From NCBI GenBank assembly GCA_017527435.1, contig JAFXQB010000001.1:4696-68695 (forward strand): a DNA stretch of 64,000 bases, read 5' to 3'. The notes beneath the pieces are model-generated. The model had not been told where the DNA came from. It ran no database searches and saw only the letters and a list, made by a program, of their open reading frames with translations. The translations under genes and the position numbers were made by a program. The stretch is from Salinivirgaceae bacterium (GTDB taxonomy: Bacteria > Bacteroidota > Bacteroidia > Bacteroidales > SZUA-534). Below, one piece after another: positions 9,201 to 53,574 of the stretch. How positions within the stretch are numbered: the first letter of the stretch is position 1; each line of letters begins with the position of its first letter.

Positions 9201-10910
9201 CCATTTATGCGAATCGCCATAAAGCTTGAGCCCCGCCTTGCCGGTGAATTTTTCAGTAACGTGCACTTCGGCGTCAACAGCCAGTCCGGCGCTTTCGCCT
9301 TTCTCGTCTTCAAAACTTTCAATTCCGTTTATCGTGAGCTGGAATCCGGCCACTTTGGGGGTCGTTAGTTTACCTGTCAGCCCCACATGCTCCAAATGAA
9401 ATTTCGTAGGGCTGATGGTCATTCCTTCAAAATTGATGTCGGGCAGAGTCATGTTGTTGTTGTCCTTCTGGTTACCGATGGCAGCATTAACCGATATTAT
9501 TCCGTTCAGACTTAGTTCGGGTTTAACCTTCGAGCTGTCAATTTCAACGGTGATGCGCGAGTCGGGAGTCAGCTTCAACGATCCGCTCAGCATTGGGAAA
9601 TCGGCAGTGTCGGGCAGAACGGCCTCAACCATGTATTTGTTTGCCGATACGTTAAGTTCGGCTTTGTAGTCGAGTAGCGATTTCTGTCCCAACGGCGGAG
9701 CATTGAGCTTGCCGCCAAACCCAACTCCTGAAATCTGATTCTGCAGAATGCCTATCTCAAAATCCTCGATACTGATGTCCCACGAGTTAGGGTCGATTGT
9801 GCCCGTTGCCACCACATTCTGCGCTGCGGCGTTGCACGAGAAGCCCGCTCCATCGATTATGACATTTGAAAGTGTGAGCTTTTTGCGCTCTTTCTTTTTT
9901 GTTTTGTCGTCCGGCTTCTGCTGGCTGGCTTGTGTTTGAGCCTGTGTCTGCTGGCCGTTTTGTGATTGCGCAGCGGATGCGTTGTCGCCGCTTCCCGACA
10001 TAAACTCGGGCAGCGTAACCTCTGCCTGGGTTACAGCAACACCACGCCACATGTTGCGGTCGTCGTCGGTGCCACCACTGAAATAGTTCTCAGGGAACTG
10101 CACCATTGCCGATGTTGATGTGTAACTCTGGTCGAGAGTAGCGCCGTTCAGCTGGAATATGTAATCGTTAAGCCCTTTGACAATAAATTGCTTGTCGAAA
10201 CCGAATGATACCGTATAATCGTCAATATCAACAATATCTGCTGACAAATCGGCTCTCAAACGTCCCGATGGTTTGCCCGAGCCGTCGATGGTTTGAATGG
10301 AGTTGCTTTTCAGAGCAAAGGCTATCTTTGCTGATAGCTTCTCAAAACCGTCGCAGCCAAACTCTACAGCAGTACCCGCCTTGAATATAACAGAAGCTTC
10401 ATTTCCCATTTTCCGCTCACAGGGGGCAGTCAGTTCAAGTCTTCCCTTTGTGCCCACACCATTTTGTCCTTCCACAATGGCGTCGCCGTCGAAGGCGAGC
10501 TTCTGTCCGTTGTCATTCAGCGGAATTATACACGATGCTTTCAGGTGTGAACGGCCTTGGTCGTCACTCACAATCTCGCTAATGCAGATGAGATATTTGT
10601 CAGCATCACCAATACCGACAGGCAGGCTCAGCTCGCTTTTTGTGAACAAATCAGACAGCGATTTCACCGTATTGCCCATTGCCTTCACACTCTCATACAC
10701 ACTCATGGCGCCATCCAGACGGCGCTTCTGATCATCGTTGAGGTTCAATGAGTCGAGCAGTTTCGACACAGCATCTGTGGCTTCTTTGGTAATAAAAGCT
10801 TTCGCATCTTCTGATATATCATTCTGTGCAAAAGCTTGATTAGTGCCCACAGAAAAAAACGACATGAAACATGCCGCAATCAGCACATACAATCTTTTCC
10901 CGAAAAACAT
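6300..10910 (-). CDS. large (1536 aa) secreted/envelope protein of unknown function, directly upstream of the SprB-repeat giant
   Basis: Track ORF 6300..10937 begins at TTG. The first ATG at 10910 gives MFFGKRLYVLIAACFMSFFSVGTNQAFA|Q, a signal peptide. The body is Gly- and beta-strand-rich. Q/K-rich low-complexity linker SGSGDNASAAQSQNGQQTQAQTQASQQKPDDKTKKKERKK at nt 9879-9998. I can name no family motif. Confidence 0.75.
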   Translation of the reverse strand: MFFGKRLYVLIAACFMSFFSVGTNQAFAQNDISEDAKAFITKEATDAVSKLLDSLNLNDDQKRRLDGAMSVYESVKAMGNTVKSLSDLFTKSELSLPVGIGDADKYLICISEIVSDDQGRSHLKASCIIPLNDNGQKLAFDGDAIVEGQNGVGTKGRLELTAPCERKMGNEASVIFKAGTAVEFGCDGFEKLSAKIAFALKSNSIQTIDGSGKPSGRLRADLSADIVDIDDYTVSFGFDKQFIVKGLNDYIFQLNGATLDQSYTSTSAMVQFPENYFSGGTDDDRNMWRGVAVTQAEVTLPEFMSGSGDNASAAQSQNGQQTQAQTQASQQKPDDKTKKKERKKLTLSNVIIDGAGFSCNAAAQNVVATGTIDPNSWDISIEDFEIGILQNQISGVGFGGKLNAPPLGQKSLLDYKAELNVSANKYMVEAVLPDTADFPMLSGSLKLTPDSRITVEIDSSKVKPELSLNGIISVNAAIGNQKDNNNMTLPDINFEGMTISPTKFHLEHVGLTGKLTTPKVAGFQLTINGIESFEDEKGESAGLAVDAEVHVTEKFTGKAGLKLYGDSHKWKFRSAEVGKINVNYEQSAFSIAGGVEFKSGDAVYGKGFRGDMQMKLLKGKLQVAAVGVFGKKDEYRYFLTDAFLETEPANGVKVSFLNFYGVGGGLYYKMQQKKNSLGGDFGKSLSGINYVPDKDVAIGLMARTKFGFSGSDKLMAADVGLEIQFNKDWGVNFIQLRGDATFVCKDLGAGLAQSIKSNMDKIEGASKGVVKFDKSQLDKPKGDGVLRASMGMMFDIQHSVFTSDLKAYLNVGGFLRGTGDNDMMGYANIYVSDNTWYTRIGTPDARCGVELLGIAKTSSYFMMGDSIPGIPALPDEILNSSILSTEQKSKLKNRPDAGLLAQGKGIAMGSSLTLGFDATLKPFYATLNFGMGTEFLLKNYGPNVHCKGSSDPVGINGWYAQAQAWAYGKASVGMKVNLFKKSRDFNIFNGELISYLTGAGPKPFYFSGMIGGNFDVMKGLVKGKFTFDFQIGDTCQMVGGSPFGENVIAQLTPDGGSTDVNVFIAPQLVLNVPANQKMNLDDGCLYRIDIDEFTITNIEGGGNKVVEATMMASEDNRTFTYKLKRPLESQKKHKVTAKVSFKKLNGSQWETVKNEDGTDCIEEKTVEFTSGNRPDYIIPDHVLYSYPADRQYNFYSSEYSEVYLLVEYDYSYLFEEQKPEGYDQVLQLTPFGGTPQTTSFSYAPPRLSTDPAVQFEVYASTAGLKFAPDQIYKLAIVNVPQKIVTKTDVNIKATSAKIEDTRSDMEKTTRSAEGTIEMLETTVIYAANFRTSSYTTFKDKIEKGFEVEEYSGWQIAGPVFKLIANITDKTTKPEIIDYREHDYYNEGKNLMILTPDYANTRWYTDSIAPFLYENPDVEKIVGNKEPPASIGIANIGFLDGQRKLTDSELETGIFNSRYHLGAYNNNISIYIDQEMSDIKTEVANYVRSHTKTQGIDKLFSVEHFPILTRGNYPIIIKYKLLGKSLVTSSMRIDIEY

Positions 10911-11045
10911 TGTTATATATGTGTATGAATGGGGCAATCCCCATCGTTATTAATCAAACAAACTGCACTTTTGCCGCCTTGCTAAAAAGCCGATGAATCA
11001 TATACTTCGAATCGGCGCCATCTCCCCTGGAAATGCATGAATTTT

Positions 11046-24372: not shown

Positions 24373-25140
24373 ATGAAAGTAACTTTTTTAGGTACGGGGG
24401 CGTCGCACGGCATTCCGATTGTGGGATGCAAATGCTCTGTGTGTCAGTCGGTTAACCCGAAGGACAAGCGGCTGCGCAGTTCGGTTTACATTGAAACCGA
24501 AGGGCGCCATCTGCTCATCGACCCTGGGCCCGACCTGCGGCAAGCGGCTCTGCGCGAAGGCTTTACGCAGATTGACGCCGTGCTCATAACCCACGAGCAC
24601 AAAGACCACACCGCCGGCATCGACGACATCCGCACCTTTAACTATATAATGCGCCGCGCCATTCCGTTCTACGCTCAGCCGCGCGTCACCGACACCATCC
24701 GCCGCGAGTACGCCTACGCCTTCAGCGAGCCGCATTACCCTGGCGCACCGCAGATTGAACTTCACCCGATTGGCAACGAACCGTTTGATGTTCAGGGTAT
24801 TACGGTAACGCCGATAAACGTTCTGCACGGCACGCTGCCCACCACGGGCTTCCGCATCGGGCAGTTTGCCTACATCACCGACGCCAAAACCATCGCCGAC
24901 AGCGAGATGGCCAAACTGCAAGGTCTTGACACATTGGTTATCAACGCCTTGCGCATTGAGCAGCACCCCGCGCATTTGAGTCTTGGCGAAGCACTCGACA
25001 TTATCTGTCAACTGAAACCGCGTTGCGCCTATCTGACTCACTTGAGCCACAAAATACCCGTCTACGACGAACTGATTAAAATGCTGCCCGACAATGTTTT
25101 GCCGGCTTACGACGGACTGAAGATAAGGATTGAAGGATAG
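24373..25140 (+). CDS. MBL-fold metallo-hydrolase (PhnP-like phosphodiesterase family)
   Basis: HxHxDH motif THEHKDHTAG; N-terminal CxxC pair GCKCSVCQS. Confidence 0.75.
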   Translation: MKVTFLGTGASHGIPIVGCKCSVCQSVNPKDKRLRSSVYIETEGRHLLIDPGPDLRQAALREGFTQIDAVLITHEHKDHTAGIDDIRTFNYIMRRAIPFYAQPRVTDTIRREYAYAFSEPHYPGAPQIELHPIGNEPFDVQGITVTPINVLHGTLPTTGFRIGQFAYITDAKTIADSEMAKLQGLDTLVINALRIEQHPAHLSLGEALDIICQLKPRCAYLTHLSHKIPVYDELIKMLPDNVLPAYDGLKIRIEG

Positions 25141-25773: not shown

Positions 25774-28206
25774 ATGAAGAAAATCGATTTTAAGAAATTT
25801 GTGCCGTACCTTGCGGCAATCGTAATATTCATTGCATTGGCGACCGCCTACTGCTGGCCTGCTGTTGAAGGCAAAGTGCTGTCGCAAAGCGATGTAGTGA
25901 GCGGCCAGTGTATCGGCCATGAAGTTGGCGAATACGCAAAAACCACTGGCAACACATCGTACTGGACCAACTCGCTCTTTGGCGGAATGCCCACATTCCA
26001 AATCTCATTTCCGACAACTTCATCAAAGATAATCAACACATTACGAAAGGCGTACACACTCTTTCTTGGGTCAGTTTGGGCATGGTTTCTGACGTACCTT
26101 TTCGGTTTTTTCATACTGATGCGCGCCTTCGATGTGAGCAAATGGTTATCGATAATCGGTTCGATTGCAGTAACGTTATCCACTTATTTCCTGATAATTA
26201 TAGCAGCCGGTCACATCCATAAGGTATATGCCATCGGTTATATGGCTGCCGTGATAGCCGGTTTCGTCTTCATTTTCAAGAAACGATACCTGTTAGGAGC
26301 CTGTCTGACAATGGTTTTCACGGCATTCGGAATGATTCTGCACCCGCAGATGGCCTATTATTTCATGATGATGGTGGGTATATTTAGCGTAGCAGAAGTA
26401 TATATCCATCTGAAAGACAATAGAATAAGAGATTTAGTTATCGGTGTTGGCGTTTTCGCCGCATCGCTGGGCATCGGTCTCGGAACCGGCTACAGCAACA
26501 TCAAAACTAATTCCGAGTATATGAAAGAGACTATGCGCGGCGGACACTCTGAACTGAACACCGCTGAAGGCAAGGTTCAGAAAGGCCTTGATTTCGACTA
26601 TGCAACGAGCTGGAGCTACGGCGTTGGCGAAACAATGACGCTGCTGGTGCCAAACTTCAACGGCGGCTCTTCGCACTATAATGTCGGCACGAAATCAAAT
26701 CTTTACGACGAAATGGTGAAGCAGGGCGTGCCAAAAAGCAACGCGAAACAATTCTGCCAAAGCCTGCCGATGTACTGGGGCGACCAGCCCTTCACCGAAG
26801 GTCCTGTCTACGTTGGCGCCATCATCTGTTTCCTGTTCCTGCTTGGCCTGATAATCGTCAAAAGCCCATACAAATGGGCTCTGCTGGCCGCCACAGTCTT
26901 CTCAATACTGCTCTCGTGGGGACGCCATTTTGAAGGACTCACATCGCTGTTTTTCAACTATTTCCCAATGTACAACAAGTTCCGCGCGGTGTCGTCGATA
27001 TTGGTTGTGGCCGAAGTGGCGATGCCGATTCTCGGATTTATGGCAATTCAGCAGATTATCGATAAAAAGATTGACCGCAAGGGACTTACAAAGGCTTTGT
27101 GCATTTCGGGCGGCATAACCGGCGGCATCTGCCTGCTGCTGGCTCTGTTCGGCGGCTCAATGTTCAGTTTCACATCGGTCAACGATGAGCAGATTTTCCG
27201 TCAGTTGCCCGACTGGGTCAACAAGCTGATTGTGAGCGAACGCGCATCAATGCTGACATCGGACGCATTCCGCTCGCTGCTGTTCATCGCACTTGCGTTT
27301 GGTACGCTGTGGCTGTTTGTGGCCGGAAAAATCAAAGTTAAACCGATGCTAATTGCCATCGGCTGCCTGGTGCTCATCGACCTTTGGCCGGTGAACAAGC
27401 GTTATTTCAATAACGATAACTTTGTGAACGAGAAAGACAAGAAAGGCTACTTTGCAAAGACCGACTACGAAGAGCGGATTCTGCGCGACACTGCCCCCGA
27501 TTTCCGCGTCCTGAACCTGACAACCAACACGTTCAACGATGCCCGCACGTCGTACTACCTGAAATCGGTGGGCGGATATCACGCTGCCAAACTGCGCCGC
27601 TATCAGGATTTGATTGACGAGCACATCTCGCGCGGCAACATGACTGTGCTGAACATGCTGAACACCAAATATATAATTCAGCCAACCGAGCAGGGTGCGA
27701 CACCGATGCTCAACGCTGAAGCGTGGGGCAACTGTTGGTTTGCCGACTCACTGATTGTGGCCGAATCGCCACGCGAAGAGTGCGACGCGCTGAACAGCAT
27801 CAAATCACCATCGACAATAGTTACTGACGCTAAATTCGTAAATTTGGTAAGCGATTTCAACACCGCCCACGACACGGCGGCAAGCATCAGCCTGACAAGC
27901 TACGCGCCTGACGTTTTGGAATATACATCAAATTCAAATCAGGCTAAAACGGCCGTTTTCTCTGAAATCTACTACCCCTACGGCTGGAAAGCCTACATCG
28001 ACGGGCAGCCCGCCGAGATTTTCCGTGCCAATTATATTCTGCGCGCGCTGAACATCCCGGCAGGCGAACACCAGATACGCTTCGAGTTCCGCCCCGACAC
28101 TGTCTACAAAGGCGACAAAGTGGGCGTTGCCTGTCTGATTCTGATGCTGGCATTCGTGGCCGGAAGCATCGGCTGGGGCATACGAAAGAGCTTGAAGGTT
28201 GAATAA
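25774..28206 (+). CDS. YfhO-like large polytopic membrane protein (putative extracytoplasmic glycopolymer glycosyltransferase)
   Basis: ATG 25774 (MKKIDFKKFVPYLAAIVIF...WTNSLFGGMPTFQISF); many TM segments; about 810 aa. Confidence 0.6.
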   Translation: MKKIDFKKFVPYLAAIVIFIALATAYCWPAVEGKVLSQSDVVSGQCIGHEVGEYAKTTGNTSYWTNSLFGGMPTFQISFPTTSSKIINTLRKAYTLFLGSVWAWFLTYLFGFFILMRAFDVSKWLSIIGSIAVTLSTYFLIIIAAGHIHKVYAIGYMAAVIAGFVFIFKKRYLLGACLTMVFTAFGMILHPQMAYYFMMMVGIFSVAEVYIHLKDNRIRDLVIGVGVFAASLGIGLGTGYSNIKTNSEYMKETMRGGHSELNTAEGKVQKGLDFDYATSWSYGVGETMTLLVPNFNGGSSHYNVGTKSNLYDEMVKQGVPKSNAKQFCQSLPMYWGDQPFTEGPVYVGAIICFLFLLGLIIVKSPYKWALLAATVFSILLSWGRHFEGLTSLFFNYFPMYNKFRAVSSILVVAEVAMPILGFMAIQQIIDKKIDRKGLTKALCISGGITGGICLLLALFGGSMFSFTSVNDEQIFRQLPDWVNKLIVSERASMLTSDAFRSLLFIALAFGTLWLFVAGKIKVKPMLIAIGCLVLIDLWPVNKRYFNNDNFVNEKDKKGYFAKTDYEERILRDTAPDFRVLNLTTNTFNDARTSYYLKSVGGYHAAKLRRYQDLIDEHISRGNMTVLNMLNTKYIIQPTEQGATPMLNAEAWGNCWFADSLIVAESPREECDALNSIKSPSTIVTDAKFVNLVSDFNTAHDTAASISLTSYAPDVLEYTSNSNQAKTAVFSEIYYPYGWKAYIDGQPAEIFRANYILRALNIPAGEHQIRFEFRPDTVYKGDKVGVACLILMLAFVAGSIGWGIRKSLKVE

Positions 28207-28207
28207 C

Positions 28208-28241
28208 AAAAAAACACCCGCCATTTGCGGGTGTTTTTTGT
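28208..28241. terminator. bidirectional intrinsic terminator between convergent genes
   Basis: A-run, then ACACCCGC (28214-28221) / GCGGGTGT (28227-28234), then T6. Confidence 0.8.
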
Positions 28242-28259
28242 TTACTAATATACAATCAT

Positions 28260-29582
28260 TTACGCGAGTTCATTCAGTATAACATTCACAATTTTCTGCG
28301 ACGGCATCACACCATCCTTCGGGTAGAGATATTCATTGTAGAACTCGTCGCGTTCGGCTTGCATCGTGTCGTTGCCGGCAATCACAACATTTTTAATGTA
28401 ATCCTCAACATCCGACGGCTGATAGGCATGATAATGCAAATCGAAGCACTTCTGCCCGAATGTGTTCCAGTGGTTTGCGTCCTTATCCTTGACAATGAAC
28501 ATTGTGGGTTTCCTGGTGTAGAGATATTCGGCCGTGAACGACGCACAATCGTGAATCATGGCATCTGAAGTCAGGAAAAGGTCGGCATAGTAACCATCTT
28601 CAAGTTGGCCGTTGGGCAGGTCGCGCCAGCGCTGATAGTAGGCTTCGGTGCGTTCTACGCCCCAAATGTTTATGAGTTTGAATTTTAGCACAGGGTGCGG
28701 CTTGAAGGCGATTTGAATGTCGTCTTTGTACTTCTCGGCCAACTCGAACATAAAATCGCAGTAAGCGAAGAAGTTAGAGAAATTGAACAGATAATCGACC
28801 GTATGGTGCGGTGCCCAAATTATGCGTTTCTTGCGTACAGACTGCGGCTTCCAAACATCGGCAGGCTTGTAATCGGGCAGCATAAGCGGCTCCATCCCCA
28901 AACTACCCGATACAACAGTATTGGCTCCGCCGCAAGTCTGGTACTGCTGCGAGTAGCCGCGCTGATATTCCGTCTCAACGAAAAAACGCCAAAGCAAATT
29001 GTGGAACGGAAGGTTGTAGACAATCCTGAAAATGTCGATATTCATTACACCATAAGGCGCATAGCAGTTTAGTTTGCCTTTGAACCTATAAATGTGGTAC
29101 TGCGGAAGCGTATCTTTGTATGGTTTGGTATAGAAAATAATGTCGGGGTTGAGCGTTTTTTTGACATTAAGCCATTTATTTCGCTCATTGTCAAAAGTTT
29201 GAAAATATCGATAGCCTGATTTTCGGGCAAATTCTTCCGATTGTTTCATCACATTTCGCATCTCGCCCTTATCGTAATTCAAATGTACATTGAAAGGTGT
29301 GATAACTACCACAGGCTCAAACCGTTCGCTTTTTTCGAAAAGCCAGTAAAGGCGGTCGTACTTCCAAACCGAAGGACTCTGCAGGAAAAACGCCACAATG
29401 ATTTTCTGCTTGTTTTTCAAGGTTTTGACAAATGCGTTGCGCTTACGTTCGAACTTCTTTGCTTTCAACTTCAGGCAGAATGGGAAGGCGGCAATGAAAA
29501 AATCGCCGAAAGTGAGCGTTTTGTAAAGGTTATCCCAAAACGACACATCAAAAAAGCCTTTTATTCTTTTTGCGATATTCAT
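28260..29582 (-). CDS. TagB/TagF-like CDP-alditol-phosphate transferase
   Basis: C-terminal LTSDAMIHDCASFTAEYLYTRKPTMF resembles the TagF (L/I)TDYSS..FD....KP motif. RIIWAPHHT resembles YAPTWR. Its start overlaps the stop of the SDR gene. Confidence 0.55.
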   Translation of the reverse strand: MNIAKRIKGFFDVSFWDNLYKTLTFGDFFIAAFPFCLKLKAKKFERKRNAFVKTLKNKQKIIVAFFLQSPSVWKYDRLYWLFEKSERFEPVVVITPFNVHLNYDKGEMRNVMKQSEEFARKSGYRYFQTFDNERNKWLNVKKTLNPDIIFYTKPYKDTLPQYHIYRFKGKLNCYAPYGVMNIDIFRIVYNLPFHNLLWRFFVETEYQRGYSQQYQTCGGANTVVSGSLGMEPLMLPDYKPADVWKPQSVRKKRIIWAPHHTVDYLFNFSNFFAYCDFMFELAEKYKDDIQIAFKPHPVLKFKLINIWGVERTEAYYQRWRDLPNGQLEDGYYADLFLTSDAMIHDCASFTAEYLYTRKPTMFIVKDKDANHWNTFGQKCFDLHYHAYQPSDVEDYIKNVVIAGNDTMQAERDEFYNEYLYPKDGVMPSQKIVNVILNELA

Positions 29583-30622
29583 TGCTCACGACCTTCGTAT
29601 CTGATTTGCTCTTCGATTGTCGCCTGCAATTTCGATTTCATATCGCCCCGCACGCGCCAGCCCAGGCCTTCAAGTTTCCGGGTATCGAAAAGAGCCTTTG
29701 TTATAATTTGATTATCAATACTTTCCATATCGGCCTGAATCAGCACTTTTTTGCCGCCTATGGCTGCAACCATTTCGGCCAGTTGACGGATTGTAATGCA
29801 CGAGTCAGTGTCGGCTACATTGTACGGCTGCCCTTTTTCGCCTTTCAACAGAATGTAGAGCAAGGCTCTGACGCAATCAACCACATAGCACCACGAACGC
29901 AACTGAATGCCAGCGCTTTTCATCAAAATGTCATCGTTGTTTATGATATTGCGAATGAACTGGGCGTAAACGCGATTGTCCGCCTCGGTGTAGTGCGGGC
30001 CATAAACGTGGCAAGGCCGCGCAATGACAATGTCTGTGCCATATTCGGCGGCATATGAAGCACACAGTGTCTCTGCTGCCCTTTTCGACGACGGATAGCA
30101 GGCTCGCGGTTGTGCGCAATCGACATAGCCGCTGTCGGTCTCCGCAAACTGACGGCCAGTGTTCTCGCCATAAATCTCGCCGGTCGACACATATAACATC
30201 CGCTGCATATTGTGGGCAATGCCGTATTCAGCAAGATTGACCACCCCGTAGAGATTTGATTTCATCACTTCAACAGGTTTCTGAGCGAAGAAATTGGGGC
30301 TCGCATTGCTTGCGGCATCAATAATATAATGAAAATCGACAGTAGAGTCGATTGGCTCGGAAATGTCGCCTTTAAGAAATTTAAAACGTGGATTGGCGGC
30401 GTGTTTCTCGAACAGTTTCCATGCCCGTTCCTGGTTCCGCCCCATGGCGAAAACGTTGCAGCCGGCCTTTGTGTTTAGCAAAAGCGCATCAACCAGGCAT
30501 GAGCCGATAAGGCCTGTAGCACCAGCAACAAGAATGTTTTTGCCATTCAGTTTGTCCCATGGCAGGTCTTCCTCTAAAATATTCTCTAAATCGACCTGAT
30601 AGCCGTTCGTTACTTTATCCAT
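29579..30622 (-). CDS. extended SDR (NAD-dependent epimerase/dehydratase family), candidate ribulose-5-P reductase partner of the cytidylyltransferase
   Basis: Rossmann motif VAGATGLIGSCLV; catalytic YPSSK; 13-nt overlap with the upstream cytidylyltransferase gene. Confidence 0.6.
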   Translation of the reverse strand: MDKVTNGYQVDLENILEEDLPWDKLNGKNILVAGATGLIGSCLVDALLLNTKAGCNVFAMGRNQERAWKLFEKHAANPRFKFLKGDISEPIDSTVDFHYIIDAASNASPNFFAQKPVEVMKSNLYGVVNLAEYGIAHNMQRMLYVSTGEIYGENTGRQFAETDSGYVDCAQPRACYPSSKRAAETLCASYAAEYGTDIVIARPCHVYGPHYTEADNRVYAQFIRNIINNDDILMKSAGIQLRSWCYVVDCVRALLYILLKGEKGQPYNVADTDSCITIRQLAEMVAAIGGKKVLIQADMESIDNQIITKALFDTRKLEGLGWRVRGDMKSKLQATIEEQIRYEGREQ

Positions 30623-31320
30623 TTGCTGTTCTCGCTTTTTAGTAAAGCCTTGAAAATCTCAATGTCTTCGGGCGTGGTAAGTTTCACGTTTTTCTCGGCA
30701 CCTTCTGAGAAATAGACCTTTCGCCCCAACTCAACAAACAACGTACACGACGCAATGGAATTGGTAATTCCGCGCCTTTGCGCTTCGGCATGGGCATCGG
30801 CCAAATCCTTTAAATAGAAGGCCTGCGGTGTCTGAGTGCGCTTGAGCGAAGTGCGTGCAATCTGGTCGTCGGCCGATTTGCCGTCGGCGGTCAAGAGCAT
30901 TGCTTCGGCACAGGGAATCACCGTAATGGCGTTTCCGCATTGTTGGCAGACATGAATGCAGTTGGTGATAATTTCTGCCGTGACCATCGGGCGTATGGCA
31001 TCGTGAATCAGCACAATATCATCACCACTGTGGCGCGAAAGCAAATCGGCCACACCGTTATGTATCGATTCCTGCCCGTTGGCGCCACCCGCAACCACGT
31101 TTTCGAATTTGCTGATTCCGAATTGTTTGCAATAGGCTTTGAGTACATCGTGCCAACCATCGATACAAACTACCTCAATGGAGTCAATCAGCGGGTGTTG
31201 CTGGAAAGCCTCAAGCGTGTATACTATCACAGGTTTGTCGTACACGTTCAAAAACTGTTTGGGAATGTCCTGTCCCATTCTGACACCCGAGCCGCCGGCT
31301 ATAATGATTGCAATGTTCAT
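30610..31320 (-). CDS. IspD/TarI-family cytidylyltransferase (CDP-ribitol-type)
   Basis: IIIAGGSGVRMGQDIPKQFL, IHDAIRP and TQTPQAF motifs. Confidence 0.8.
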   Translation of the reverse strand: MNIAIIIAGGSGVRMGQDIPKQFLNVYDKPVIVYTLEAFQQHPLIDSIEVVCIDGWHDVLKAYCKQFGISKFENVVAGGANGQESIHNGVADLLSRHSGDDIVLIHDAIRPMVTAEIITNCIHVCQQCGNAITVIPCAEAMLLTADGKSADDQIARTSLKRTQTPQAFYLKDLADAHAEAQRRGITNSIASCTLFVELGRKVYFSEGAEKNVKLTTPEDIEIFKALLKSENSKWIK

Positions 31321-31377
31321 TTGACTGCTTTTTGACTTGACGAAGGTACAAAGAAAACAATCCTTTAGTGCATTTGT

Positions 31378-32229
31378 TTAGATATTTCGCACTTTGAAAT
31401 CCGAAATTTGATGAGTCTCTATTTTGTCTTCAGGCGGAATCTCCATATAATTTCCGTAGATACGTTTCAGATACGAATCAACATCGTGTGGTGCTTTAAA
31501 TTTCAAACCTTCGAATTCAATCTCGCCAAGTGGAAAAATATCTGATTTGTTCCGTATGCTGTAAAATGTAGTCCCGTAATTGTGCACGTAAGTATCTCTA
31601 TGAAAAATACTGCACCATCCACTAATAATGTCTTTTATAATCACAGAGAATGGATATGCAATTATGGACAATATGTGTTTAATCTTTCCATCGTAAATTG
31701 TATTCCAGACTCTGCGCAAGCATTTTCCGTACGTTTTTTCGATGAATTTTTTTGTTGCCAGGGTGCCGCATTCCATAAATAATATATCCAGCCATAGATT
31801 ATCGTCAACAATAATAGACGAACCTTTTAGTGGTCTTTTTACAGAAGCGTTATTGTCATATACACGGCTTATAATATGTTTAGCTTTCTTTTTTAAGCCA
31901 GGATATTCGTATTTTGATTCTAACCCCGCTTCTGAATATTTATAATTTGGGTTTAGACTCTCATGCATGGCTTTTCTCAGCTTATTACGGTCCTTTTTTA
32001 GCACGCACACATCAATGTCATCATCCCATGGTATAAATCCGCCATGACGAACAGCTCCGATCAGGTTTCCTGAATCTAACCAATAATCAATGCCGTGGTT
32101 CCGGCAGACTCTGTCGAATTCAACAAGAATGGACAATTCTCTGAGTTGGATCTGCCTCAGCAGCGACCCTTCGGGATTATATTTTGCCCTTAATTCTTTA
32201 TTGTTAATTGTCGGTATGGCTGCCATCAT
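31378..32229 (-). CDS. LicD-family phosphotransferase
   Basis: DYWLDSGNLIGAVRHGGFIPWDDDIDVCV signature; the gene is visibly AT-rich. Confidence 0.8.
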   Translation of the reverse strand: MMAAIPTINNKELRAKYNPEGSLLRQIQLRELSILVEFDRVCRNHGIDYWLDSGNLIGAVRHGGFIPWDDDIDVCVLKKDRNKLRKAMHESLNPNYKYSEAGLESKYEYPGLKKKAKHIISRVYDNNASVKRPLKGSSIIVDDNLWLDILFMECGTLATKKFIEKTYGKCLRRVWNTIYDGKIKHILSIIAYPFSVIIKDIISGWCSIFHRDTYVHNYGTTFYSIRNKSDIFPLGEIEFEGLKFKAPHDVDSYLKRIYGNYMEIPPEDKIETHQISDFKVRNI

Positions 32230-32354
32230 GAAAATGTTTCTATTATTCGTTTGTAATTCTTTTCATTCCCCACTCATAAACATTGATAACGGGGCTGCTA
32301 ATTTCATATTTTTCAGTCAGCTCTTTAATAAATCGTAGTCCGAAAGGAAAAACT

Positions 32355-32411
32355 TCAGTGAAATATCTGGTTTGGCTTCACCATCCCGGCCGCCAATATT
32401 ATTGCTTGCAT
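32355..32411 (-). pseudogene. possible remnant of a nucleotidyltransferase (LicC-like) N-terminus
   Basis: An 18-codon ORF, MQAIILAAGMVKPNQIFH*. Its first 10 residues mimic the M.AIILAAG.G start of sugar/choline-phosphate nucleotidyltransferases. It lies in a 289-nt gap inside an otherwise tight operon. Confidence 0.25.
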
Positions 32412-32518
32412 ATTAAAAAGGCAACTGCTTGTATTAATTCGACTTCATTGTGAAGCAAAAATACATTCAAGAGTATAAAAAACAAATTACGAATTCTAAA
32501 TCTTAGTTAAAATTGGAA

Positions 32519-33268
32519 TTACTTCAATTGCTTCGAAAACGGATACTTAAGCACAATGGCAAAATGCGCCAACAGCGTGCGCCACAAGCCGAAATGGCTT
32601 CGCATTATTCTGTAACGCTCAAACCATGACGCCTTGCGGTTCTTGGCCGATATGCCCGACTGCATGAATTTCGACAAGTAGCCGTCGATATAAACATTGC
32701 GACGCGACTGTTTCAGAACACCGCAAACCCAGTCATAGTCAGCCGAATAGCGGTACTGCAAATCATATTTTGGAGCTATGCTTTTCCTCACTATAATCGA
32801 TTGGTGGCAGACTACCAAACCATTCAGCAAACTATTGAGTTGCAAGCTTTTGGGTGCAATCTTGTGGCGCTCACCACACGGTGTGCCATTGGTGTCGATA
32901 ATGAGCGTCTGACCATAAACCACATCAACTGAATCTGTTACGGCATTGGCAACAATTTGCGTTGTGCCAACGTCAAATATCTCATCTCCGGCATTTATGA
33001 ACCAGACAAAATCGCCCGTGGCCATTTGCAGACCTTTGTTCATAGCATCGTACAATCCCCTGTCGGGCTCGCTTATCCATTTAAAATCAATACCTTTCGC
33101 ACGAATTTGTTCTTCAAAATCATTGATAACGCCAACTGTGCCGTCAGTCGATTTTCCATCAACAATAATATATTCAACGTTGGGATACGATTGTGCCACA
33201 ACACTTTGAATGGTTTTTGGCAAGAAACGCTCAGCGTTGAATGTTATAGTGATTATTGATAATTTCAT
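32519..33268 (-). CDS. family-2 glycosyltransferase
   Basis: LSIITITFNAERFLPKTIQSV...VDGKSTDGT N-terminal GT-A signature. Confidence 0.85.
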   Translation of the reverse strand: MKLSIITITFNAERFLPKTIQSVVAQSYPNVEYIIVDGKSTDGTVGVINDFEEQIRAKGIDFKWISEPDRGLYDAMNKGLQMATGDFVWFINAGDEIFDVGTTQIVANAVTDSVDVVYGQTLIIDTNGTPCGERHKIAPKSLQLNSLLNGLVVCHQSIIVRKSIAPKYDLQYRYSADYDWVCGVLKQSRRNVYIDGYLSKFMQSGISAKNRKASWFERYRIMRSHFGLWRTLLAHFAIVLKYPFSKQLK

Positions 33269-33277
33269 ATGGATTAA

Positions 33278-34816
33278 CTATTTATTAGCCAATAATTTGC
33301 CAATATGCAATTTCTCGTCAACAAACCGCAGTGTACTCTGCCGCTCATTTGGCGTAAGTCCTAAAAGAAACACTGACAAACCTGTCATCAAAACCGACGC
33401 GGCCACAACAGTGACAAATCTTATAAAACCATAGCTGATATTTGCTTCGAGCAGCATTGGGAATATTGTCGCCACAACGGTTACGGCCAGCACCGGCAGC
33501 ACTACACTCTTCAGATACATCCGTAACGACAGACCGACGCACTTGCGAACGAACAATAATCGCACTAAAACGGCTATGGCACAAATGATTATCGATACGT
33601 AAAAGACGGTTTCGGGTGGGAATCCCAGTTTCAGGAACAAATACGAAACCGGCAGAATCAGCAGAATGAATCCGCCGACAGCCAAATTATAGTTCCGAAT
33701 CTTGCCATAAGCCTGTATAGCAGCCGCCAGCGGGTTCGCCAACGATTCAACCACGGCGTTTATGACCACTAGCCGGGTAAACAATATCGTATAATCGGGC
33801 ACTTTTTTCAACCAGAGTCCAAGAAGGAACGGCGTTTCGAGCAACACTGGCAATGCAACTGCAAATATCAGATAATAAGTGAATTTCGAACTTTGACACA
33901 CTAGTTTGAGCATACCGCTTCGGTCGCCGGCCGAATATGACTTTATGAGTTGAGGACGCACCGCCCAGTAGAAATTGTCGGCAAACGTCTGTATGCTTTG
34001 AAAAACCTTGTAGGCAAGGCCCCGTGCGGCATTGACAGCCGGGCCGAAAAATATGTTAATCAGAATATTCAGTCCGTGACTTTTGCAAATGCCTGATATT
34101 GAGCCTACCATATTCCATCCGGCAAAACCGAGTATCTCACAAAACCGTTCGCGGTTCCAATAAAACATCAGTTTGCATTCGGGATAAAAAACTCGGCAAT
34201 AAATAATATAAAATGCTGAAATCGCAGCATTTACAGCAGCCATAAGTATCGCATACAATATCAGTCTGTCGCCGCCGTAATGTGCTATCAGAATGGCTAT
34301 CCCCAAACCGCCAACAACATCAATAACAGTCAGATAGGCGAACACTTTCATCTTTTCCTTGGCTATCACCATACCCATATAGGGTGTCCGGATTATGGTG
34401 AACACAAACGACAGAATGCTCAAATGGAACACCCAGCGCGCCGCATCCATACGGCTTGCCACTTTCATCTTGCTCTGCAGCAGCCAAATACCCGATACTT
34501 CGGTTGCCAACGCCAGCACCACAATTATTATCGCAAAAACCAGCACACAAAGGCTGAACGTGCGCCGCAACTCATCGAAATTGCCACGCCCGATCTCGTA
34601 AGAGTAGAACCGCTGGCACGATGTTGACATTGTGCTGCTTAAGAACGAGAACATCATCACAATTGCGCCCACAGCATTGTAAACGCCAAAATCGACCTCG
34701 CCCAGCGCATCGAGCACAACACGCGACGTGTAGAGCCCGACAATCATCACCACGCCAATGCGCAAATAGAGCAGCATGGTGTTTTTCGCTATCCGTTTCT
34801 GGTCGATTGCTGACAT
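33278..34816 (-). CDS. polysaccharide flippase (Wzx / MATE-like)
   Basis: Multi-TM protein. I prefer ATG 34816 (MSAIDQKRIAKNTMLLYLRIG) because a -7 box lies inside the longer track ORF (to 34879). Confidence 0.75.
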   Translation of the reverse strand: MSAIDQKRIAKNTMLLYLRIGVVMIVGLYTSRVVLDALGEVDFGVYNAVGAIVMMFSFLSSTMSTSCQRFYSYEIGRGNFDELRRTFSLCVLVFAIIIVVLALATEVSGIWLLQSKMKVASRMDAARWVFHLSILSFVFTIIRTPYMGMVIAKEKMKVFAYLTVIDVVGGLGIAILIAHYGGDRLILYAILMAAVNAAISAFYIIYCRVFYPECKLMFYWNRERFCEILGFAGWNMVGSISGICKSHGLNILINIFFGPAVNAARGLAYKVFQSIQTFADNFYWAVRPQLIKSYSAGDRSGMLKLVCQSSKFTYYLIFAVALPVLLETPFLLGLWLKKVPDYTILFTRLVVINAVVESLANPLAAAIQAYGKIRNYNLAVGGFILLILPVSYLFLKLGFPPETVFYVSIIICAIAVLVRLLFVRKCVGLSLRMYLKSVVLPVLAVTVVATIFPMLLEANISYGFIRFVTVVAASVLMTGLSVFLLGLTPNERQSTLRFVDEKLHIGKLLANK

Positions 34817-34830
34817 AGTGTTGTTTGTTG

Positions 34831-34838
34831 CAAATGTA
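34831..34838 (-). promoter_or_regulatory. candidate -7 box (TACATTTG on minus strand) for the glycopolymer operon
   Basis: Plus-strand CAAATGTA; 14 nt upstream of ATG 34816. Confidence 0.45.
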
Positions 34839-35006: not shown

Positions 35007-37109
35007 TCATTGCACAAAACCTTTTCTCCTCAACAGATTCTTCGGGTCGGGTTGGCGGCCACGGAAGTTGATGTAGAGCGTCATCGGGTCATCGGTGAAG
35101 CCGCGCTCAAGAATGTTGTGGCGCAAGCTGGTGGCCACTTCGCGGTTGAAGATGTCGCCAGTCTCCTTAAAGGCAGCAAACACATCGGCATCCAGAACCG
35201 CAGCCCATGTATAACTGTAATAACCTGCTTCATAGCCAGTTGTAAAAATGTGGCTGAAGTTGGTGCTTCGGTAGCGGACGATTATTTGCGGAATCATACC
35301 CATGCGCTCCATCGAAGCCTTCTCAAATGCTTCTACATCAATCGAATCGGTGGTTGTTATCAGATGATAGTCCATATCAAGGATGGTGGCTGACAGCAGT
35401 TCGGTCATCACAAAACCTTGATTGAACGTTTTGGCGCGTTGCAAGCTTGCAATAAGTGAGTCGGGAATTGTTTCTCCCGTCAGATAATGCTTTGCGTATG
35501 AGCGCATTACTTCGGGTTCGTAGCACCAGTTTTCCATCAGTTGCGAAGGCATCTCAACAAAATCGCGCGGCACGCTTGTGCCCGACAAACTTGGGTAGGT
35601 GCACTTCGACAGAAATCCGTGCAGTGCATGGCCAAACTCATGGAAAAGAGTCTCCACCTCGTCCATCGTCAGCAGCGAAGGCTTGTCGGCCGTAGGTTTG
35701 GTGAAGTTGCAGACATTGCAAATCACAGGCCGATGGTCAACACCATCCTTCACATACTGCTCGTTGATGTTGTTCATCCACGCACCACCGCGTTTTCCTG
35801 CACGAGGGAAGTAGTCGCCGTAGAAAATGCCCAGCAGTGAGCCATCGGCATCCACAACCTTAAACACCTCAACGTCGGGATTATAAACAGGCATCTCCGA
35901 CAGCTTTTCGAATTTCAGTCCATAGAGTTTCGTGGCCAAATCGAATACGCCCTGGCGCACGTTCTCAAGTTTGAAATATGGCTTCAGCGCTTCTTCGTCG
36001 AGATTGTATTTCTCGCGGCGCAGTTTTTCGGCGTAGAACCACCAGTCCCACGGTTCTAGTTTCTCGCCGCGGCCTTCGGCATCCATAAGTTTTTGAAGTT
36101 CAGCGGCTTCCTTTTTGGCCTGCGCCAACGATGGTTCCCAAACTGATGGAAGGAAATCCATCACATTTTTTGAGTTTTTGGCCATCGATGTTTCGAGAAT
36201 CATATCGGCAGGATTGTCGAATCCGAACATTTTTGCCTTCTCAACGCGTAGTCTAACCGTTTGATTGATAACCGATTTATTATCGTTTGCGTTGTTATTG
36301 TTGCCGCGCATTGTGTAAGCGATTAGCAGTTCGCGACGCAGTTCACGATTCGTACAATATTGAAGTACAGGAATAAAACTTGATTTCTGCGTTGTGAAAA
36401 GCCATTTGCCAGGTTGTCCTGCGGCAGCGGCTTCTTCGGCGGCGGCATTCTTCACATCCTGCGGCAGACCGTCCAAATCCTGTTCATTATCAATCCATTT
36501 CTGATAAGCATTGGTCTCGGCCAGCACGTTGCCGCCAAACTTGATGTCGAGCAGGCCCAACTCCTTGTTAATCTCGCGCAGACGGGCTTTTTGGTCATCG
36601 TTAAGGTTTGCGCCACTGCGGACGAAACTCTGATATTTCTTTTCTAGCAACCGCATCTGCTCTTGATTGAGATTGAGCGAATCACGCATATCATAAACTG
36701 CCTTGATTCGTTTGAAGAGTGCGGCGTTCAGGCAAATATTGTCGGAATGGTCGGAAAGCAAAGGCGTCACCTTTTCTGCAATAGCGTCCATATCTTTGTC
36801 AGTATCAGCCGAATAGAGATTAAAGAAGACATCCGAAACGCGTTCGAGCATTTCGCCCGAATACTCAAGTGCTTCAATAGTATTGGCAAATGTCGGTGGT
36901 TCGGGGTTGTTTGCAATTGCTTCAATTTCAAGCGAATCCTGCCGCATTCCTTCAATAAAGGCTGGCATATAATGCTCGGTTTTAATCTTATCGAACGGTG
37001 GCACTCCGTATGGCGTGTCAAACTCTGCGAAGAATGGATTTTGTGTGTCGGCGCACGAGACGGTTAATAACGACATAAGACTGAAAATTAAATATTTGCG
37101 TTTCATCAT
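35007..37109 (-). CDS. dcp: M3-family peptidyl-dipeptidase
   Basis: HEFGHALHG zinc motif; lipoprotein-type signal MMKRKYLIFSLMSLLTVSC; 700 aa. Confidence 0.85.
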   Translation of the reverse strand: MMKRKYLIFSLMSLLTVSCADTQNPFFAEFDTPYGVPPFDKIKTEHYMPAFIEGMRQDSLEIEAIANNPEPPTFANTIEALEYSGEMLERVSDVFFNLYSADTDKDMDAIAEKVTPLLSDHSDNICLNAALFKRIKAVYDMRDSLNLNQEQMRLLEKKYQSFVRSGANLNDDQKARLREINKELGLLDIKFGGNVLAETNAYQKWIDNEQDLDGLPQDVKNAAAEEAAAAGQPGKWLFTTQKSSFIPVLQYCTNRELRRELLIAYTMRGNNNNANDNKSVINQTVRLRVEKAKMFGFDNPADMILETSMAKNSKNVMDFLPSVWEPSLAQAKKEAAELQKLMDAEGRGEKLEPWDWWFYAEKLRREKYNLDEEALKPYFKLENVRQGVFDLATKLYGLKFEKLSEMPVYNPDVEVFKVVDADGSLLGIFYGDYFPRAGKRGGAWMNNINEQYVKDGVDHRPVICNVCNFTKPTADKPSLLTMDEVETLFHEFGHALHGFLSKCTYPSLSGTSVPRDFVEMPSQLMENWCYEPEVMRSYAKHYLTGETIPDSLIASLQRAKTFNQGFVMTELLSATILDMDYHLITTTDSIDVEAFEKASMERMGMIPQIIVRYRSTNFSHIFTTGYEAGYYSYTWAAVLDADVFAAFKETGDIFNREVATSLRHNILERGFTDDPMTLYINFRGRQPDPKNLLRRKGFVQ

Positions 37110-50397: not shown

Positions 50398-51555
50398 ATG
50401 GAACACGGATTCATATCATTTGTGCTCGAACATATAGCACAATTCTTCTCATACACAGCCTTCGCCAACATGACCATCGGCCACCTTGTGATGATTGCCG
50501 TTGGTTTGGTTTTCATCTATTTAGCCATTGCGAAGGAATTTGAACCGATGCTGCTGCTGCCAATCGGTTTCGGCATCATCATTGGCAACATTGCCTTCGC
50601 GCCTGGTCTTAAAATCGGCATCTACGAGAGCGGCAGTGTGCTTAACTACTTGCATTTCGGCGTTTTACAAGGCGTTTACCCGCCACTGATATTTTTGGGT
50701 ATTGGTGCGATGACCGACTTTTCGGCGCTCATCTCGAACCCGAAACTGGTTCTGGTGGGCGGTGCCGCTCAGCTAGGTATTTTCGGCGCTTACGCGATTG
50801 CCCTGGCGCTGGGATTCACATCGCCCGAAGCAGGTGCAATCGGCATCATTGGCGGTGCCGACGGCCCGACAGCCATCTTCCTTTCGTCGAAACTGGCCCC
50901 CGACCTTATGGGCGCCATTGCAATATCGGCCTACTCGTATATGGCGCTTGTGCCGGTGATTCAGCCGCCGATTATGAAACTGCTGACAACAGAGAAAGAG
51001 CGCACCATTAAAATGAAACCGCCTCGCGCCGTTTCAAAAACCGAGCGCATTATGTTCCCGATTATCGGTCTGCTGCTCACCTGCCTTCTGGTTCCGTCGG
51101 GTCTGCCGCTGCTGGGTATGCTTTTCTTCGGCAACCTGCTGAAAGAGAGCACGGTAACCAAACGCCTGGCCGACACCGCACGCGGTCCGCTCATCGACAT
51201 TGTGACAATCCTTATCGGCCTGACCGTGGGCGCTTCAACGCAAGCAACCACCTTCCTGACAGCCAAATCGATAGGCATCTTCGCACTGGGCGCAATATCG
51301 TTTGTGATTGCAACCTGCGGCGGTGTGCTGTTCGTGAAGTTCTTCAACCTGTTCCTGAAGGAAGGCAACAAAATCAACCCGCTCATTGGCAACGCTGGTG
51401 TTTCAGCTGTGCCCGACAGCGCGCGCGTTTCGGAAGTTGTTGGCCTTGAGTTCGATAAGAGCAACCACCTGCTGATGCACGCAATGGGCTGCAACGTGGC
51501 TGGCGTCATCGGTAGCGCCATTGCCGCTGGTATCTTGTTGAGTTTCTTGAGTTGA
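50398..51555 (+). CDS. mmdB: Na+-translocating decarboxylase beta subunit
   Basis: 385-aa polytopic protein of the OadB/MmdB type; operon context. Confidence 0.85.
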   Translation: MEHGFISFVLEHIAQFFSYTAFANMTIGHLVMIAVGLVFIYLAIAKEFEPMLLLPIGFGIIIGNIAFAPGLKIGIYESGSVLNYLHFGVLQGVYPPLIFLGIGAMTDFSALISNPKLVLVGGAAQLGIFGAYAIALALGFTSPEAGAIGIIGGADGPTAIFLSSKLAPDLMGAIAISAYSYMALVPVIQPPIMKLLTTEKERTIKMKPPRAVSKTERIMFPIIGLLLTCLLVPSGLPLLGMLFFGNLLKESTVTKRLADTARGPLIDIVTILIGLTVGASTQATTFLTAKSIGIFALGAISFVIATCGGVLFVKFFNLFLKEGNKINPLIGNAGVSAVPDSARVSEVVGLEFDKSNHLLMHAMGCNVAGVIGSAIAAGILLSFLS

Positions 51556-53561: not shown

Positions 53562-53574
53562 TTTGCAGAAAAAA

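Follow-up and report, generated by a model that had tools for sequence, protein, structure and literature searches.

Gene content and organization of the locus

The DNA analyzed here is a 64-kb window (positions 4,696 to 68,695 of contig JAFXQB010000001.1, GenBank assembly GCA_017527435.1) from a Salinivirgaceae bacterium, and the system in question is a putative glycan locus within it, in which a minus-strand operon, wzx-GT2-licD-cytidylyltransferase-SDR-tagF-like (GT, glycosyltransferase; SDR, short-chain dehydrogenase/reductase), converges on a plus-strand yfhO gene (Table 1). Positions are those of the whole window. The open reading frames (ORFs) of the window were annotated with Pfam and NCBIfam profiles, and precomputed Pfam hits were available for 21 kb around the operon. 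A first-pass annotation, made by reading the sequence without database searches, had described seven genes and a shared terminator in this region, and all of them were found where it had placed them. Its family labels were likewise recovered for the genes, although those of TagF and YfhO correspond to weak, partial Pfam matches.

Table 1. Features of the locus, in order of position in the 64-kb window
Feature	Position	Strand	Details
YfhO-family membrane protein, putative GT-C transferase	25774-28206	+	810 aa from ATG 25774; longest ORF from TTG 25747
Bidirectional intrinsic terminator	28209-28239	both	AAAAAACACCCGC-CATTT-GCGGGTGTTTTTT
TagF/TagB-superfamily GT-B enzyme, divergent	28260-29582	-	440 aa; PF04464
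Extended nucleotide-sugar-type SDR	29579-30622	-	347 aa; PF01370 E 4e-48
IspD/TarI-fold cytidylyltransferase	30610-31320	-	236 aa; PF01128 E 5e-40
LicD-family phosphotransferase	31378-32229	-	283 aa; PF04991 E 4e-32
Gap, deletion scar	32230-32518	-	289 bp; TAnnTTTG promoter-like motif at 32463
Soluble GT2 glycosyltransferase	32519-33268	-	249 aa; PF00535 E 1e-26; best NCBIfam match WcaE, 1e-27
Wzx/MOP-type flippase	33278-34816	-	512 aa from ATG 34816; longest ORF to 34879; weak PF01554 MatE match
Bacteroidetes-type -7 promoter-like motif TACATTTG	34831-34838	-	about 15 nt upstream of the wzx start; pattern match alone

The terminator has a perfect 13-pair stem flanked by A and T runs on each side and is common to yfhO and the operon. 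Within the operon, the cytidylyltransferase gene shares 13 nt with the SDR gene, which in turn shares 4 nt with tagF-like; the latter overlap is consistent with translational coupling. Hydropathy analysis revealed at least 12 hydrophobic segments in Wzx, the 512-aa start of which is used by gene callers on identical contigs. No transmembrane (TM) segment was found by hydropathy in the 249-aa GT2, and a GtrB-like role for this protein was ruled out on that basis. Homologues of the GT2 with 48-64% identity lie near a TagF-like/YfhO-like pair in most of the loci L012-L045 (L-numbers are labels of loci fetched from relatives), and the protein thus belongs to the conserved core.

The same proteins are encoded in the same order on several independent metagenome contigs, and TagF-like and YfhO-like genes are neighbors in 45 of the 79 loci fetched from relatives, so the arrangement exceeds chance. 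The nearest genomes are metagenome-assembled genomes (MAGs) of rumen Bacteroidales, labeled Salinivirgaceae by NCBI, in which the TagF-like protein is 86-87% identical. Neither the scanned window ORFs nor the precomputed hits in the 21-kb region contained the Wza/Wzc export, Wzy or UpxY/UpxZ functions of a Bacteroides capsular polysaccharide locus, a Wzz protein, an ATP-binding cassette (ABC) exporter or an initiating phosphoglycosyltransferase. This agrees with the earlier statement that the region is not a standard Bacteroides capsule locus. An Rfam scan of the window gave no match.

The cytidylyltransferase and SDR pair

In the Bcs1 and TarIJ systems, ribulose 5-phosphate is first reduced, by a classical SDR or a medium-chain dehydrogenase/reductase (MDR), and cytidylylation occurs afterwards. 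Abp1/Abp2 make cytidine diphosphate (CDP)-arabinitol by a different route, which employs a CDP-ketose reductase. The CDP-ketose route starts with cytidylyl transfer to a ketose phosphate and ends with reduction of the resulting CDP-ketose, and approximately 400 pairs of adjacent PF01128 and PF01370 genes have been predicted to follow it (PMC10918830). The route has been proven biochemically for HS5.18/HS5.17 of Campylobacter jejuni, which yield CDP-6-D-glucitol, and for Mnp1/Mnp2 of Streptococcus pneumoniae, which yield CDP-mannitol (PMC10918830).

The first-pass annotation had regarded the window pair as the equivalent of the Bcs1/Acs1 fusion of Haemophilus, making CDP-ribitol. The pair shares with Bcs1/Acs1 and TarI/TarJ an IspD-fold cytidylyltransferase accompanied by a reductase, and Bcs1-like fusions hold the same position in the related loci L088, L014, L016 and others. 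However, the window reductase is an extended SDR (PF01370), neither a classical SDR nor an MDR, and its match to adh_short, the domain of the classical Bcs1-type enzymes, fell under the cut-off of that profile. The cytidylyltransferase did not reach any of the NCBIfam cut-offs set for IspD or ribitol-5-phosphate cytidylyltransferase (173.3 against 181.3 for TIGR00453, IspD; 159.8 against 166 for NF001183, the ribitol-5-phosphate family). Its alignment to HS5.18 (34% identity, 120 bits) compares with approximately 107 bits for the best TarI and IspD structures, which places it slightly nearer to this fructose-6-phosphate enzyme than to any TarI or IspD structure. A housekeeping IspD of the methylerythritol phosphate (MEP) pathway was ruled out, given the score under the cut-off and the overlap of the gene with that of the SDR inside a glycan operon.

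The SDR carries the motifs GATGLIG at residues 34-40 and YPSSK at 176-180. Among PDB entries, it matched UXS1 with 119 bits and chains 8v4g/8v4h, identified by sequence as the CDP-6-fructose reductase HS5.17, with 109 bits. The alignment with HS5.17 (27% identity) begins at residue 23, before the Rossmann motif, where HS5.17 has an unusual N-terminal helix, so this N-terminal extension is a trait that the two proteins share. Residue equivalences were mapped by hand from the alignment and the published residue roles. E140, R164, Y167, K171, R208 and R233 of HS5.17, which include the tyrosine and lysine of YxxxK, are kept in the window SDR as E149, R173, Y176, K180, R217 and R242.

The presence of adjacent PF01128 and PF01370 genes, which is the criterion used for CDP-ketose reductase pairs (PMC10918830), indicates that the pair has the architecture of the CDP-ketose route and is not an equivalent of Bcs1 or TarIJ. 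As the reductase is an extended SDR, reduction would follow cytidylyl transfer rather than precede it. The product is likely a CDP-alditol formed via a CDP-ketose, for which pentitols and hexitols, ribitol included, are not distinguishable from sequence. Thus, the proposal of CDP-ribitol found no support, and the pair appears to fit a different CDP-activated alcohol. In contrast to CDP-ketose pairs described in capsule loci, the window pair is situated in a Bacteroidales Wzx locus.

The TagF-like protein is a divergent member of its superfamily

The protein encoded downstream of the pair matched PF04464 with 26.9 bits (cut-off 22.1) over residues 251-436, its C-terminal half, alone, and matched NF046086, the BFO_1060 family, with 21 bits. 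It belongs to a family of 3,058 clusters at 90% identity (E <=1e-5), nearly all from Bacteroidales and typically 55-60% identical. An AlphaFold2 (AF2) model with a mean confidence (pLDDT) of 84.7 has a GT-B fold, and Foldseek aligned this model to Bcs3 (8a0m, TMq 0.55) and TarL (8va1, TMq 0.48). The top Foldseek matches were UDP-GlcNAc 2-epimerases, which are generic GT-B proteins, so that the result supports the fold and not membership of the TagF family.

To relate the family to TagF, we aligned its profile by hhalign to a canonical set composed of Staphylococcus epidermidis TagF (entries for the H444N/H584A mutants) and four canonical proteins from the fetched loci, which gave a probability of 82-85%. 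When the set was replaced by just one canonical TagF-like sequence, the probability was 1% and the alignment made no sense. In the C-terminal domain, the motifs WAPHHT, KPH296P and IHDCAS of the window protein correspond to YAPTWR, RMH584Y and ITDYSS of TagF, and H296, the equivalent of H584, which in TagF binds pyrophosphate, was present in 83 of 83 family members. The second TagF histidine fared differently. W-H444-G was aligned to F-[F/Y]151-T in global mode, to F-D131-N in local mode, and by strand order to P-Y177-G. Since these registers disagree, the verdict on H444 depends on the lack of any conserved histidine in the N-terminal domain: none occurs in any of the registers, and none within residues 1-250 exceeds 59% conservation among the 83 members. 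Polar residues of this domain that are conserved are K74, D147, Y155, Y174, Y177 (100%) and E203. Thus, of the catalytic histidines for which the first-pass annotation had called for an alignment, one is invariant and the other, the H444 base, is absent.

From these comparisons, the window protein represents a divergent branch of the superfamily and is not a canonical TagF. It shares with TagF/TarL, Bcs3 and Cps3D the GT-B fold, the motifs resembling YAPTWR, the HP of H584 and ITDYSS, and a coupling to CDP-polyol synthesis genes. It differs from TagF/TarL in lacking His444 (WHG), in having the invariant residues Y177, D147 and E203 and the WAPHH motif, in being a single 440-aa domain, and in an export context of Wzx rather than an ABC transporter. 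We propose that it acts as a CDP-alditol:glycan alditol-phosphotransferase, for which one or a few additions are more likely than polymerization.

Donor cassettes in related loci

We fetched and annotated 79 loci around relatives of the TagF-like protein, 67 of which had enough upstream sequence for donor cassettes to be counted. A nucleotidyl- or cytidylyltransferase cassette was found within 3.5 kb upstream and on the same strand in at least 43 of the 67, mostly abutting or overlapping the tagF-like gene. At least five interchangeable types were recognized: a Bcs1-like fusion of IspD and adh_short (nine loci, including L088); IspD and adh_short as split genes (nine loci); a TagD-like gene alone (seven loci); a TagD-like domain fused to a GFO/IDH/MocA oxidoreductase or an Asn-synthase-like domain (nine loci); IspD with an extended SDR (four loci and the window); and a fusion of nucleoside triphosphate (NTP) transferase and aminotransferase accompanied by an octopine-dehydrogenase-like gene (four counted, 11-12 by blastx). 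Such swapping of upstream cassettes is the pattern expected for a transferase that uses a CDP-activated alcohol, with the alcohol differing by lineage. This genomic coupling alone, in at least 43 of 67 loci, bears on the use of a CDP-polyol by the TagF-like protein. What is new here is the loss of TagF's canonical catalytic histidine in a very large family of Bacteroidales enzymes that nevertheless remains closely tied to at least five swappable cassettes for activated alcohols.

The last of these cassettes consists of an NTP-transferase/class I-II aminotransferase fusion of approximately 600-632 aa and an octopine/nopaline-dehydrogenase-like protein of approximately 330 aa (L025:7108-9995, L094:1-1529 and 10-11 others). 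It may produce an uncharacterized nucleotide-activated amino-alcohol or opine-like head group.

Three close relatives, L007, L008 and L042, illustrate how the locus varies. Their TagF-like and YfhO proteins are 85-87% and 81-86% identical to those of the window, and they keep wzx, the gene for the 249-aa GT2, tagF-like and yfhO, with the genes between them swapped. Identity to the window proteins ranges from 34 to 87% for the SDR and from 45 to 63% for LicD, unless LicD is missing altogether. The cargo found at this chromosomal site differs too: L042 carries genes for a pyruvyl transferase, an FrhB-like protein, an aminotransferase and a TagD-GFO fusion (L042:2592-7336), and L008 carries genes for TagD, an Asn-synthase-like protein, a canonical PF04464 enzyme and an acyltransferase (L008:1145-7410). 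The variation among relatives of the same family is serotype-like. With its conserved frame and differing middle, the locus is a hypervariable cassette region bounded by conserved genes.

LicD and the gap upstream of licD

The LicD protein has a DDD motif at residues 69-71, which aligned with the DxD region of FKRP (6kaj, E 2e-7). PF04991 and the DxD region are shared with other LicD proteins, FKRP and fukutin; the window protein differs in that the upstream donor cassette presumed to be its own has been lost. The gap at 32230-32518 retains the last ~45 codons of an octopine-dehydrogenase-like gene (blastx E 1.5e-8, 44-50% identity). Upstream of this remnant are 13-15 N-terminal codons (MQAIILAAGM...) that are 80-85% identical to the start of the NTP-transferase/aminotransferase fusion. 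The latter match is not significant on its own (E ~1), but the gene order agrees with that of the intact cassette. The fusion and octopine-dehydrogenase-like genes are intact directly upstream of the tagF-like gene in 11-12 relatives, and in L094 an intact cassette of this type is followed by licD.

As read from these remnants, the 289-bp gap is the deletion scar of a second donor cassette and not a plain spacer. The remnants and the L094 arrangement together suggest an ancestor in which each of two donor cassettes preceded a separate transferase, and a later loss, in this strain, of the cassette serving LicD. LicD is left with no obvious local donor cassette.

The L094 arrangement, in which LicD and not the TagF-like protein follows the cassette, also bears on the possibility that LicD alone uses a CDP-alditol and that the TagF-like protein is a glycosyltransferase with a sugar donor activated by cytidine monophosphate (CMP) or another nucleotide. 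A precedent is Tanf_01245/BFO_1060 of Tannerella forsythia, a TagB-like pseudaminic/legionaminic acid transferase (PMC5420450). The weak match to NF046086, the HP (296-297) and E-D-G (328-330) motifs, which are of the kind described for that enzyme (PMC5420450), and the missing H444 base would fit such a function. However, no genes for CMP-nonulosonate or 3-deoxy-D-manno-octulosonate (Kdo) synthesis were found in or near the locus. The tagF-like gene also overlaps the SDR gene by 4 nt, and at least 43 of the 67 relatives have a cassette of the CDP-alcohol type directly in front of it, often where licD is lacking. We therefore regard a sugar transferase as unlikely and retain the alditol-phosphotransferase assignment.

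YfhO and its neighborhoods

The YfhO protein matched PF09586 with 34.5 bits (cut-off 28.5), and the match was confined to residues 703-787, a C-terminal stretch of ~85 residues. Hydropathy analysis indicated approximately 13 TM segments and a final TM segment. In an AF2 model (pLDDT 76), an N-terminal helical bundle is followed by a C-terminal beta domain and a terminal helix. The top Foldseek matches to this model were the GT-C enzymes PglB, STT3, AftD and Emb (E 1e-4 to 1e-2, TM-score 0.3-0.4); a PDB profile search with the YfhO alignment returned noise alone. Hydropathy, model and Foldseek matches are thus compatible with a GT-C enzyme, although the structural evidence is weak.

Two groups of YfhO-like proteins were distinguished. 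Window-type YfhO has many Bacteroidales homologues at 54-58% identity, all recognized by PF09586. A paralogous group, typified by L086, comprises proteins of approximately 801 aa that are ~40% identical to the window protein and usually have no PF09586 match, so that surveys based on Pfam thresholds would miss them. Its members include L086:11340-13745, L088:11341-13746 and those of most of L012-L045, and in Paludibacteraceae-like MAGs they are operonic with genes for the TagF-like protein, a GT4 and a 244-aa GT2. D40, which follows TM1, is invariant in both paralogue groups, including the L086/L088 type. With the Firmicute proteins YfhO, GtlB and PgfM, the window protein shares the PF09586 match, many predicted TM helices with a putative C-terminal extracytoplasmic domain, this invariant Asp after TM1, and polyol-phosphate genes in the neighborhood; it differs in that the Pfam model recognizes its C-terminal ~85 residues alone.

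Whether YfhO co-occurs with the operon in other genomes had been posed as a check by the first-pass annotation. A YfhO-like gene accompanied tagF-like in 45 of these 79 loci; co-directional, convergent and upstream placements all occurred. This is far above chance, since a YfhO gene is expected only once or twice per genome. The repeated coupling of the TagF-like family to YfhO-type GT-C enzymes is new. Also new is the finding of window-YfhO orthologues inside small variable glycan clusters: this was the case for 6 of 6 orthologues sampled in other families, with Wzx in 5 of the 6. These clusters contain GT2 or GT4 genes, methyltransferases, rml genes, LicD or sugar-nucleotide genes, and no Wzy was found in the six neighborhoods.

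These neighborhoods are relevant to another account, namely that the region is an ordinary variable surface-polysaccharide, O-antigen or lipooligosaccharide (LOS) locus, completed by WaaL ligation or Wzy polymerization from elsewhere, with yfhO as a conserved but unrelated neighbor. The central part of the locus does vary between close relatives in the manner of serotype loci, yfhO is on the opposite strand behind a strong terminator, and window-type YfhO adjoins the tagF-like gene within one family only. An unrelated neighbor would, however, not be expected to recur in variable glycan clusters of other families, mostly with Wzx, as the six orthologues do; nor does this account fit the paralogous YfhO-like gene, which is operonic with tagF-like in many lineages. 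No Wzy, Wzz, WaaL or UpxY was found in any sampled locus. On balance, this account seems rather unlikely.

Proposed pathway

We favor, at a probability of roughly 55%, a reading in which the locus directs the Wzx-dependent synthesis of a short undecaprenyl-linked oligosaccharide, which would bear alditol phosphate and be passed on by YfhO, rather than of a teichoic-acid polymer. Gene content, folds, motifs and synteny were observed; from these we infer the substrates, the sequence of reactions, the acceptor and what YfhO does. The IspD-fold enzyme would cytidylylate a ketose phosphate, and the overlapping extended SDR would form a CDP-alditol by NAD(P)H-dependent reduction of the CDP-ketose. 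The TagF-like GT-B enzyme would then move alditol phosphate onto a sugar of a lipid-linked glycan, releasing CMP; this glycan would be assembled by the soluble GT2 and enzymes encoded elsewhere. LicD would be a second phosphotransferase, the donor cassette of which was deleted in this strain. Wzx would flip the finished unit, and the YfhO-type GT-C enzyme would transfer it at the periplasmic face to the final acceptor. A short oligosaccharide is favored over a polymer by Wzx export, by the lack of an ABC transporter, Wzy and Wzz, and by the presence of a single soluble GT2. In its broader form, the earlier suggestion of a toolkit for a phospho-alcohol, CDP-alcohol-dependent glycan in a Gram-negative bacterium is supported by these data.

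The more specific version of that suggestion was that the TarI-like enzyme and the SDR make CDP-ribitol, that the TagF-like protein primes or polymerizes poly(ribitol phosphate), and that YfhO glycosylates this polymer outside the membrane as in Firmicutes. It has some support in relatives: true Bcs1-like IspD-adh_short fusions or TagD-like genes often precede the TagF-like gene, YfhO-like genes co-occur with the family, and some related loci hold GT2 proteins of GtrB size (320-328 aa). CDP-ribitol could also arise through a CDP-ribulose intermediate. In the window, however, the reductase is an extended SDR and not of the TarJ or Bcs1 type, the transferase scores under the NCBIfam ribitol-5-phosphate cut-off, and the TagF-like protein lacks the H444 base. 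A teichoic-acid-like polymer is also unlikely in view of its export, since Wzx handles short units and no TagGH- or KpsMT-type ABC transporter was found. Finally, the Firmicute scheme has three components, and its GtrB-like membrane GT2 and GtrA-like flippase are absent from the window, where the partner of YfhO is Wzx. Taken together, these differences make a YfhO-glycosylated poly(ribitol phosphate) quite improbable.

Several observations weigh against the oligosaccharide pathway that we favor. For the SDR, M139, T195/Q196 and D212 of HS5.17 are replaced by G148, C204/H205 and Q221, respectively, and of these residues M139 and Q196 contact the polyol and D212 the cytosine; T98 and S100 are not conserved; and the protein resembles a UDP-glucuronate decarboxylase (119 bits) no less than it does HS5.17 (109 bits). 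For the TagF-like protein, the PF04464 match is weak, the family profile found nothing in the PDB at E <=1, the register of the N-terminal domain is ambiguous because the global and local hhalign modes disagree, and the family lacks the catalytic base of TagF, H444. For YfhO, Foldseek support for a GT-C fold is weak (TM-score 0.3-0.4), and the protein beside TagF-like in most other lineages is the ~40% identical paralogue. As window-type YfhO adjoins the tagF-like gene only in the family of the window itself, this adjacency alone could be inherited rather than functional or selected. In addition, no initiating transferase is encoded nearby.

Possible relationship to protein O-glycosylation

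To our knowledge, the oligosaccharyltransferase (OTase) and ligase of Bacteroidota O-glycosylation have gone unidentified for more than 15 years. According to a 2025 review, none of the three components OTase, outer-glycan ligase and core flippase has been identified (PMC12871550). In a preprint of July 2026, Bacteroidota YfhO was proposed as the missing O-OTase of general protein O-glycosylation, on the grounds of HHpred similarity to PMT, phylum-wide conservation and essentiality (bioRxiv 10.64898/2026.07.27.740950). The LFG loci of this system have wzx first, a variable middle and conserved transferases at the end, and phosphate and sugar-alcohol substituents occur on Bacteroidota O-glycans (PMC12871550). 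The O-glycan of Porphyromonas gingivalis carries glycerol phosphate, which is added by an unidentified enzyme (PMC8729774), so that a polyol phosphate has a precedent in the phylum.

The window locus and the six YfhO neighborhoods fit this picture circumstantially. With LFG loci they share, as L007, L008 and L042 illustrate, wzx in the first position, a variable middle, conserved edge transferases and the lack of Wzy and UpxY. The window differs from LFG loci in lacking a metG anchor (no metG is adjacent, and thrS is 3.8 kb away), and P. gingivalis lacks YfhO yet glycosylates its proteins; the link to O-glycosylation is circumstantial. The locus may be the protein O-glycan locus of this lineage. 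A tentative extension, which we consider possible but doubtful, is that it makes a species-specific glycan with an alditol phosphate and that the adjacent YfhO is the missing periplasmic O-OTase or outer-glycan ligase.

The chemistry itself would not be new, since polyol-phosphate glycans are already known in Gram-negative bacteria, namely in the capsule of Haemophilus influenzae type b (Hib), in C. jejuni HS:5 and in the P. gingivalis O-glycan. If the extension is true, the TagF-like family with its swappable cassettes would place variable phospho-alcohol head groups on Bacteroidota O-glycans, as in P. gingivalis. The genomic context described here provides independent circumstantial support for the nomination of YfhO in the preprint, which was made on other grounds, and the loci are concrete candidates, with predicted mass shifts, for testing the YfhO O-glycosylation hypothesis.

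Flanking genes and other features of the window

Both flanks of the locus consist of housekeeping genes. Upstream of the operon, the peptidase gene dcp (35007-37109) lies next to wzx and is followed by a gene for a nucleoid protein and by thrS. On the other flank are genes for an AlaX-like editing protein and a metallo-beta-lactamase (MBL)-fold hydrolase. The latter (24373-25140, plus strand; two genes upstream of yfhO) matched Anti-Pycsar_Apyc1 (PF23023) among the precomputed Pfam hits and also matches the housekeeping NCBIfam profile PRK02113 (295 bits, cut-off 386); it is probably an ordinary MBL hydrolase.

Elsewhere in the window, a 669-aa membrane protein of the sulfatase superfamily (51552-53561, plus strand) has weak best NCBIfam matches to LtaS (92 bits, cut-off 970) and phosphoglycerol transferase I (OpgB). 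Its gene overlaps that of a YegS/DgkB-type lipid kinase (53527-54552, plus strand), a pairing that recalls LtaS with diacylglycerol (DAG) recycling. A DAG-kinase gene also adjoins the YfhO orthologue in L093.

At the left end of the window, a 1,545-aa ORF (6300-10937, minus strand) had no Pfam match. The DNA beside it (1-6155) has 33% G+C, compared with approximately 48% elsewhere. Tandem-repeat and phage searches of this low-G+C end were empty, and the region proved to be a giant minus-strand ORF of at least 2,051 aa, which begins at 6155 with the signal peptide MTMKYRIVFVFCCVLACVQQLFAQT and runs past the start of the window.

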